A DNA stretch of 32,000 nt, taken from the NCBI GenBank assembly GCA_028713575.1, contig JAQTOB010000002.1:1-32000 (forward strand), written 5' to 3'. Origin of the DNA: Patescibacteria group bacterium. GTDB lineage: Bacteria > Patescibacteriota > Patescibacteriia > UBA2591 > UBA6264. The stretch's first letter is position 1. Each line of letters starts with the position of its first letter. Made by a program: the position numbers and the translations under genes. Under the pieces are notes generated by a model. The model was not told the DNA's origin. It was given only the letters and a program-made list of their open reading frames with translations, and searched no databases. Of the stretch, positions 24,034 to 24,069 are shown piece after piece.

Positions 24034-24069
24034 AACTTCTTGCAGGTCGCACCTGCAAGAAGTTTTTTA
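24034..24069 (+). terminator. Palindromic element family F2 (AACTTCTTGCAGGT-cgc-ACCTGCAAGAAGTT) plus T-run; intrinsic terminator between convergent genes
   Basis: Perfect 14-bp stem, 24034-24047 with 24051-24064, followed by TTTTT. A near-identical stem recurs at 30054-30082 with a different loop. Confidence 0.8.

Follow-up and report, generated by a model that had tools for sequence, protein, structure and literature searches.

F2, a small family of REP-like palindromes in a Patescibacteria genome, probably shaped by a RAYT-like Y1 enzyme

A short palindrome designated F2 is dispersed through the intergenic DNA of a Patescibacteria genome, is absent from its counterpart sites in sister genomes, varies in tail and loop between near-identical strains, and shares its tip with the hairpins that flank a RAYT-like gene. 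F2 is probably a small REP-like palindrome family within a wider tip class, on which a RAYT-like Y1/HUH enzyme would act, spreading and remodelling the copies, and one member of which, at position 24034, would have been co-opted as a terminator. The window analysed is a stretch of 32,000 nucleotides (C2:1-32000), and the genome to which it belongs (G000) measures 692 kb with 34% G+C, is distributed over 24 contigs (denoted by C and a number) and is 99.5% complete.

The first-pass annotation of the window had drawn attention to two distant hairpins with an identical 13-bp stem whose sole difference resides in the loop, and the sequence at both loci agrees. The pattern ACTTCTTGCAGGT-NNN-ACCTGCAAGAAGT is present at 24034-24064 and at 30054-30082 against a chance expectation of 0, and the window holds two occurrences of the core GCAGGTNNNACCTGC versus 0.00 in 100 shuffles, which bears out the statement that the shared stem exceeds chance. 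The two copies are listed below together with the tail of the second one, 2.25 arm copies long, which had been overlooked.

24034-24064, no strand assigned: F2 copy 1, AACTTCTTGCAGGTcgcACCTGCAAGAAGTT, a perfect 14-bp stem with the loop cgc, followed on the + strand by a T-run
30054-30082, + strand: F2 copy 2, ACTTCTTGCAGGTccgACCTGCAAGAAGT, a perfect 13-bp stem with the loop ccg, without a T-run on the + strand
30083-30109, + strand: tail belonging to F2 copy 2, with CTGCGAGAAGTG directly repeated 2.25 times, the units being 3'-arm copies that begin 2 nt past the loop

The copy at 24034 fills a gap of 39 nt between two convergent genes, which were assigned by Pfam to a GT2 glycosyltransferase (22906-24027, + strand) and a HIT-family protein (24067-24513, - strand). 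Downstream of the stop codon that ends at 24027 stands a stable GC-containing stem-loop, namely the 14-bp stem, with the T-run TTTTTTATT behind it; the predicted RNA fold reaches -20.9 and -21.4 kcal/mol (z = -7.2), and the terminator scan returned one terminator-like site here, composed of 24034-24064 plus TTTTATTCCC. Because the pattern scan, the fold and the hairpin-plus-T-run kept at orthologous sites point in the same direction, this copy would serve as an intrinsic terminator at a gene end, and it is the only F2 copy that looks like one, the T-run being found on the strand of the upstream gene in one of the six copies known from the genome. At 30054, which lies 41 nt past the stop of a 78-aa gene with the next start codon 47 nt on, the terminator call is for the minus strand, on which there is no gene end. 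The suggestion that the element had been co-opted as a terminator at 24034 and not at 30054 is consistent with this pattern, in which only 24034 fits on the strand with the upstream gene.

The same features could imply that F2 acts mainly as RNA, in the form of 3'-end stabilising hairpins, terminators or 5'-leader hairpins maintained by selection on the transcript. Such a reading can draw on the very high stability of the predicted RNA hairpins, on the terminator fit of 24034 with a hairpin and T-run at the orthologous sites of two relatives, and on the copy at C3:67386, whose single T-G pair would give a G-U wobble on the gene-sense strand but not on the other. As the principal explanation it is nevertheless very unlikely, given the single T-run in six copies, the comparison of F2 with Rfam, which yielded no match and led to the rejection of a known RNA family, and the association with RAYT flanks, the strain-variable tails and the loop flips, which selection on RNA leaves unexplained. 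An RNA role can still coexist, as a secondary co-option, with the REP-like reading preferred here.

The count across the genome, which had been proposed as a check, revealed six F2 copies rather than two, each of 29-31 bp, spread over four contigs, all intergenic and with unrelated flanks.

C2:24034, loop cgc
C2:30054, loop ccg, with a tail
C4:34615, loop cag, with a tail
C3:65788, shorter stem, loop ctg, with a degenerate tail
C3:67386, one T-G pair, loop ctg, with a tail
C9:2968-3010, minus orientation, 5' arm decayed, with a tail

Tails accompany four of the six copies and consist of the 3' arm CTGCAAGAAGT repeated once or twice more in direct orientation, with 0-2 spacer bases in between; they always run from 2 nt past the loop, so that the architecture seen at 30054 is also found at C4:34615, C3:67386 and C9. 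Single-arm tails of this kind number 40 in the genome; the unit begins with the base directly behind the loop in 24 of them and at a distance of up to 2 nt in a further 8. In blastn comparisons of 800-nt neighbourhoods, the similarity between loci stops at the hairpin or at the hairpin plus tail, over at most 54 nt; because it ends at the element, the copies are not segmental duplications, and the duplication of one terminator was rejected, as homology does not extend into the flanks. The earlier view of a dispersed REP/BIME-like or mobile hairpin is thus strengthened by six intergenic copies with non-homologous flanks that are absent at orthologous sites of the same genus: in place of two copies left by the duplication of a single terminator, there is a set of six with related variants, the homology of which terminates at the element.

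Two further candidates were discarded. An uptake-sequence-like function of the arm was rejected, the 11-mer being hardly present beyond the six elements. Integron attC sites are imperfect hairpins of 60-140 nt with extrahelical bases, which are located at cassette ends and accompanied by an IntI integrase, and their shape is not matched by F2, a perfect 29-bp palindrome with a 3-nt loop. A search for the strict F2 stem in 185,579 species genomes gave three matches only, which are chance-like and come from unrelated taxa. The longer F2 core TTGCAGGTNNNACCTGCAA was detected in three of 60 relatives, all of them from the family but from genera other than that of G000; the two same-genus genomes gave no match.

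Comparison with these two same-genus genomes (G001 and G002) places the elements in lineage-specific DNA. In both of them the 78-aa gene is followed by rmuC within about 15 nt and F2 is absent, whereas the present genome carries the following insertion at that point.

30014-31262, + strand: lineage-specific segment of about 1.25 kb between the 78-aa gene and rmuC, comprising F2 with its tail, a 74-aa gene and a 263-aa gene

The segment is regarded as lineage-specific, with F2 at its upstream edge, because the 78-aa gene abuts rmuC in the same-genus genomes. Among 55 genomes of the order, only one other proved to encode the 263-aa protein, with CCCAGGTagaACCTGGG following it there; for the 74-aa and 263-aa genes no Pfam family scored above the cut-off, and a weak KN17 SH3-like match was obtained. 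The product of the neighbouring 78-aa gene is membrane-like, and two short strings that resemble each other, TAAGGTTAGGA and TAAGGTTTAGGA, are found close to the two ends of the segment. Likewise, the repeat-filled spacer of about 300 bp around the C4 copy has no counterpart in G002, and just a few bases of it are left in G001; in these two genomes the 340-aa gene abuts lgt or nearly does so.

The site orthologous to 24034 is occupied in G002 by ACTTTTTGGGGACcggGTCCCCAttttttt, carrying TGGGGACcggGTCCCCA, and in G001 by another hairpin with a T-run. The G002 hairpin is of the type TTTGGGGACccgGTCCCCAAA, which flanks the RAYT-like gene of G002 itself. As the hairpin type at this site differs by species, the terminator position appears to have been kept and to have been filled from the repeat repertoire of each species.

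The spacer before ftsZ, which harbours the C9 copy of F2 here, contains in G002 (C72:1866-3077, L094) a 1.2-kb insertion with a RelE/ParE-like toxin gene pair, and this spacer appears to be an insertion hot spot. A 34-nt module, GGTCGCTTTTTTTGTTTTTGGTGGTATAATAAA, made up of the 3' half of a terminator and a promoter-like TTGTTT-17-TATAAT, is present at G000 C3:67443-67476, G002:C40:1763-1796 and G000 C6:16030-16058, and is 100% identical between G000 and a congener that is 70-77% identical. In the congener the module follows a tRNA gene and the terminator stem is intact, whereas in G000 an F2 tail abuts it and the 5' half of the stem is gone.

Beyond the exact stem, F2 forms part of a tip class of perfect hairpins with loops of 3-4 nt, in which the tip (A/G)GGT-N3/4-ACC(T/C) is constant and the lower stem is variable yet paired, as exemplified in this genome by TACACAGGT, CCAGGT, TTGGCAGGT, TTGGAAGGT and CTTGGAGGGGT. 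Hairpins of the form GGT-N3-ACC with stems of at least 7 bp amount to 19 in the genome against 0-1 in 20 block shuffles. The window contains the following members in addition to F2.

3463-3495, no strand assigned: tip-class doublet, CCAGGTcgcACCTGG (3463-3477), gtg and CCAGGTgagACCTGG (3481-3495)
9256-9282, 9344-9374 and 9629-9659, no strand assigned: three tip-class hairpins with a different lower stem, AAATACACAGGT-tca/tga-ACCTGTGTATTT

The inner part CAGGT-cgc-ACCTG had been said to recur at 3463-3477, and it is indeed contained there in CCAGGTcgcACCTGG; the second hairpin directly after it, CCAGGTgagACCTGG, had gone unmentioned. The doublet can alternatively fold into one long REPIN-like hairpin (dG -27.9), and a near-identical CCAGGT doublet adjoins the RAYT orthologue of the related genome G008 on its downstream flank (L024). 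Across the family, CAGGTNNNACCTG is found in 18 of 21 genomes in up to 29 copies, as opposed to two matches in total for the reversed control pattern, and the sites often form doublets spaced 18 nt, as at 3463-3495.

A resemblance of CAGGT-N3-ACCTG to a dimer operator, along with the location of the four tailed F2 copies upstream of co-directional genes and their unit period of 12-13 bp, raises the alternative that hairpin and tail constitute a duplex binding array for a regulator or partition-type protein, that is, an inverted-repeat operator with direct-repeat half-sites ahead of genes. All 13 CAGGT-N3-ACCTG sites, however, continue to pair for another 1-9 bases, in lower stems of three or more unrelated sequences, the palindromy extending 4-9 bp past the core with differing sequences in 11 of them and 1 bp in the other two, and a protein site needs no such extension. 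This additional pairing on unrelated lower stems argues for a process that makes hairpins or palindromes over a protein half-site. The unit number moreover varies among near-identical strains, the C9 copy is oriented opposite to its neighbours and decayed in this genome, the genes downstream are unrelated to one another, and genomes of the same genus lack the elements. An operator or iteron array, whose probability is very slight, was rejected on the extended, covarying palindromy, the strain-variable units and the absence from congeners.

Several other repeat hairpins were recorded alongside. A separate group has the outer stem AAAAGTTTGG...CCAAACTTTT in common and differs in its inner tips (GGAAC/GTTCC, TGGC/GCCA and AGAC/GTCT), which is the reverse of the F2 class with its constant tip and varying outer stem; its sites lie at 3321-3367 and 10912-10930 of the window and at C1:2680, C17:4710 and C17:6039 of the genome. 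Motifs of the DnaA-box-like type TGTGGATAA adjoin repeat hairpins at C17:4690-4710, C13:6700-6715 and C8:13095-13112, and the C13 site may be close to the replication origin. The longest arm-repeat tail seen is situated at C8:2377-2500, where the hairpin CTTGGCAGGTcatgACCTGCCAAG precedes approximately seven 15-nt direct repeats of ACCTGCCAAGGCGAG; its period is a multiple of three, and the region may be coding.

A search for a REP-associated tyrosine transposase had been recommended, and the genome proved to contain five genes matching Y1_Tnp (PF01797), each of which is flanked by its own hairpin type.

C8:8748-9377, Y1 gene with the hairpin GGGGTcagACCCC
C1:54823-55425, Y1 gene with the hairpin TAGTCGAtatTCGACTA
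C8:1-153, Y1 gene cut by the contig end, with the hairpin CTACGAGGcgagaCCTCGTAG
C4:64522-65277, Y1 gene with the hairpin TTGGAGACcagGTCTCCAA
C4:28002-28658, Y1 gene with hairpins of the F2 tip class

To the left of the last of these genes lies TTTTTGGCAGGTgctcACCTGCCAAAAA with direct repeats of the 3' arm behind it, and to the right TTGGAAGGTgagcACCTTCCAA with CTTCCAA repeats behind it, hence the F2 tip class without the exact F2 stem. The protein of this gene contains the motifs HFH and YYIHFHNP and scores 34.6 bits against Pfam Y1_Tnp, for which the cut-off is 23. The best NCBIfam match of the three proteins tested is NF047646, the REP-associated tyrosine transposase, at 33.7, 61.7 and 20.7 bits, the first value belonging to the C4:28002-28658 protein and all lying below the equivalog cut-off of 80. 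A lookup of a 282-aa protein encoded on C3 gave no record.

Orthologues of the C4 gene with 56-72% identity were identified in five related genera (G014, with two copies, G008, G010, G009 and G006), and all of them are flanked by tip-class hairpins with arm-repeat tails, several having such a hairpin within the gene as well. The five full-length orthologues and the C4 gene make up one clade, in a tree that leaves out the G006 orthologue, cut by a contig end, and was used for clade composition only. The G010 orthologue is preceded by ACTTCTTGCAGtTCTTGCAGtTCTTACAGGTccgACCTGTTAGGAAGT, an F2 sequence altered in one compensated base pair, with a 5' tail. Other Y1 clades are associated with other tips, of the TACGAGG types and the xxAC/xxGC types. 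Hairpins of the flanking type were also observed inside the Y1 ORFs of relatives with the frame unbroken (L023, L024, L025, L026, L032 and L038), similar to those reported for TnpA-Y1 subclass 2.4.

The link between F2 and the RAYT-like gene is not airtight, as the exact stem is absent at the gene in this genome and the class occurs in genomes in which the RAYT of this clade (clade 1) was not found, namely G002 with 12 sites, G016 with 24 and G007 with 11, which are 78%, 90% and 97% complete, respectively. A strict correlation between tip class and clade-1 RAYT across the family accordingly fails, which may reflect in part the incompleteness of genomes, or the use of similar tips by other Y1 clades.

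A different kind of enzyme was also considered, since small GIY-YIG nucleases of the Ssn type are flanked by their own hairpin repeats (PMC11893778) and nine GIY-YIG matches are present in this genome; F2 hairpins might in that case be single-strand nuclease targets, comparable to the NTS/SRM repeats of Neisseria. A hairpin of the form (A/G)GGT-N3-ACC(T/C) was, however, located within 400 nt of none of the nine loci, where the hairpins are of other types (for example CCTGCC/GGCAGG, TCCGCC/GGCGGA and CTACGAGG). With the tip class at 0 of 9 loci, this scarcely credible proposal was rejected.

Strain-level contigs that are 97.7-100% identical to this genome disclosed variation at the elements themselves. 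At 24034, the contig ERZ27247361 has an inverted loop, gcg for cgc, and one extra 14-nt unit, CTGCAAAAAGTTGA, which is a copy of the arm and flank. At the C4 locus, the contig of JGI 3300037067 has a tail shorter by one unit, and the neighbouring GGGGTctgACCCCC hairpin lacks a 7-nt repeat of the 5' arm. The decayed C9 copy corresponds to a perfect F2 with a 5' tail in a sister strain, and the CTTGGAGGGGT hairpin beside it differs between strains by a flip of its loop from tca to tga. The C3:65788 copy resides in a segment of about 150 nt, instead of which two other strains carry unrelated sequence; the tail unit AGACCCCAAGTCGATA of the hairpin next to it is present once here and three times in those two strains. 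No variation was observed at 30054 in ten strain-level contigs. When C3:65697-65909 of this genome was set against the corresponding contigs (L099/L100), the sequence to the right of a GGGGTcagACCCC hairpin was 100% identical over 1.8 kb and that to the left 97.8%, with a non-homologous replacement of about 150 nt in between, which suggests a recombination boundary at this hairpin.

Template switching at palindromes classically yields flipped loops and perfectly paired stems, and flipped loops were seen between strains. An origin in the host itself therefore stays a rival, because loop flips and perfect stems need no transposase: palindromes could be made by template switching or by hairpin breakage and repair and spread by gene conversion or local recombination, with the RAYT-like genes merely residing in the same repeat-rich DNA. 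The tail copy number, which behaves like that of a small tandem repeat, and the finding of the tip class in genomes where the matching RAYT clade was not found agree with such an origin. It is nonetheless unlikely, inasmuch as copies on different contigs with unrelated flanks require a moving process, several Y1 clades have each their own hairpin type on both flanks across genera, and one orthologous site in two species holds, in each, the hairpin type of its own RAYT.

According to the preferred, RAYT-based reading, the F2 hairpin would form on single-stranded DNA and be recognised, cut and rejoined by a Y1 enzyme, and such cutting and rejoining would cause copies to be spread, amplified and remodelled in intergenic DNA. 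If the cut fell at the hairpin apex or next to it and synthesis were primed from the nick, tandem one-arm tails could arise at the loop or at most 2 nt from it, and host template switching across the palindrome might keep the stems perfect and flip the loops. We infer both the agency of the RAYT-like protein and the position of its cut from the sequences compared. In E. coli, cleavage and strand transfer by TnpA-REP have been demonstrated, the 3'-OH at the cut has been proposed to prime the synthesis of further BIME units, and the tandem BIME number varies between strains (Ton-Hoang et al., PMC3333891).

A more specific and rather doubtful version of the mechanism may be put forward tentatively, in which the Y1 enzymes of these Patescibacteria would recognise the tip (A/G)GGT-N3-ACC(T/C) instead of a GTAG foot and would nick the DNA at the apex or beside it, with priming adding arm copies and a few flank bases. 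If this were true, the strain-variable tails would record recent activity of the enzyme and would point to a branch of REP/RAYT systems with a mechanism of its own.

These results imply that a host-dependent genome of 0.69 Mb keeps several transposase-linked palindrome families, which remodel intergenic DNA, replace terminators and differ between near-identical strains. Hairpins of this sort could pass for riboswitches, operators or small RNAs in the annotation of candidate-phyla genomes; in the literature searched, no paper dealt with REP/RAYT elements of such bacteria. From the arm repeats anchored at the apex and the flipped loops, the points at which hairpins are cut or copied may be read in the sequence itself, which could help to test REP amplification, and the F2 tails are usable as a strain marker in metagenomes.

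Among known systems, the REP/BIME-RAYT 'REPtron' of E. coli, Pseudomonas and Stenotrophomonas (PMC3333891, PMC6006769, PMC2817692) offers the closest set of parallels to be weighed. Each tnpAREP gene has its own REP family, several of which coexist per genome, and REPs occur in frame inside tnpAREP genes (PMC6006769); F2 is similarly a short intergenic palindrome with several dispersed copies, and its class flanks a Y1/HUH gene that is one of several paralogues in the genome, each with its own hairpin type, the hairpins being found inside the transposase gene in relatives. Strain-variable tandem amplification is also shared, as would be occasional service as a terminator. Canonical REPs, in contrast, are defined by a GT[AG]G tetranucleotide at the hairpin foot (PMC6006769), and the F2 stems, preceded by atca, caca, taca or gtgg, have neither GTAG nor GTGG at their foot, the conserved part being the tip rather than the foot and the loops measuring 3-4 nt. 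E. coli TnpA-REP requires a mismatch and neither bound nor cut perfect palindromes (PMC3333891), whereas the stems of the F2 class are perfect. F2 and its class comprise 6-20 copies compared with typically more than 100, or hundreds, per genome for REPs, the amplified units are apex-anchored half-arms rather than whole BIMEs, the RAYT-like proteins score below the equivalog level, and the host is a Patescibacteria genome of 0.69 Mb. The low copy number (6 for F2, about 20 for the class), the perfect stems and the sub-cut-off proteins are the counterpoints to a REP/RAYT assignment.

With intrinsic terminators only the 24034 copy has a likeness, in its stem and subsequent T-run right after a stop codon; the other five copies differ from them in having no such T-run, the stem is common to dispersed copies, and it is swapped for other repeat hairpins in sister species. 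The IS200/IS605 elements IS608 and ISDra2 likewise employ an HUH Y1 enzyme and recognise subterminal hairpins on single-stranded DNA, and the weak PDB match obtained is to ISDra2 TnpA; F2 departs from them in that its copies are gene-free, no TnpB partner is apparent for the Y1 genes, and no conserved tetranucleotide target or guide was seen beside F2. TIRtrons/TIRYT and the atypical TnpA-Y1 subclasses 2.6 and 3 (PMC3733652, PMC6006769) resemble the present system in possessing other flanking repeats in place of GTAG REPs and a low copy number elsewhere in the genome, although the flanks here are same-orientation hairpins with tails as opposed to the long terminal inverted repeats of TIRtrons/TIRYT. 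Judged by sequence, F2 would be an atypical REP/RAYT variant, set apart by fully paired stems, few copies, tails anchored at the apex and the lack of a GTAG foot, and its system is closer to these atypical TnpA-Y1 subclasses and TIRYT-like systems, which have been described without a mechanism, than to the canonical REP.
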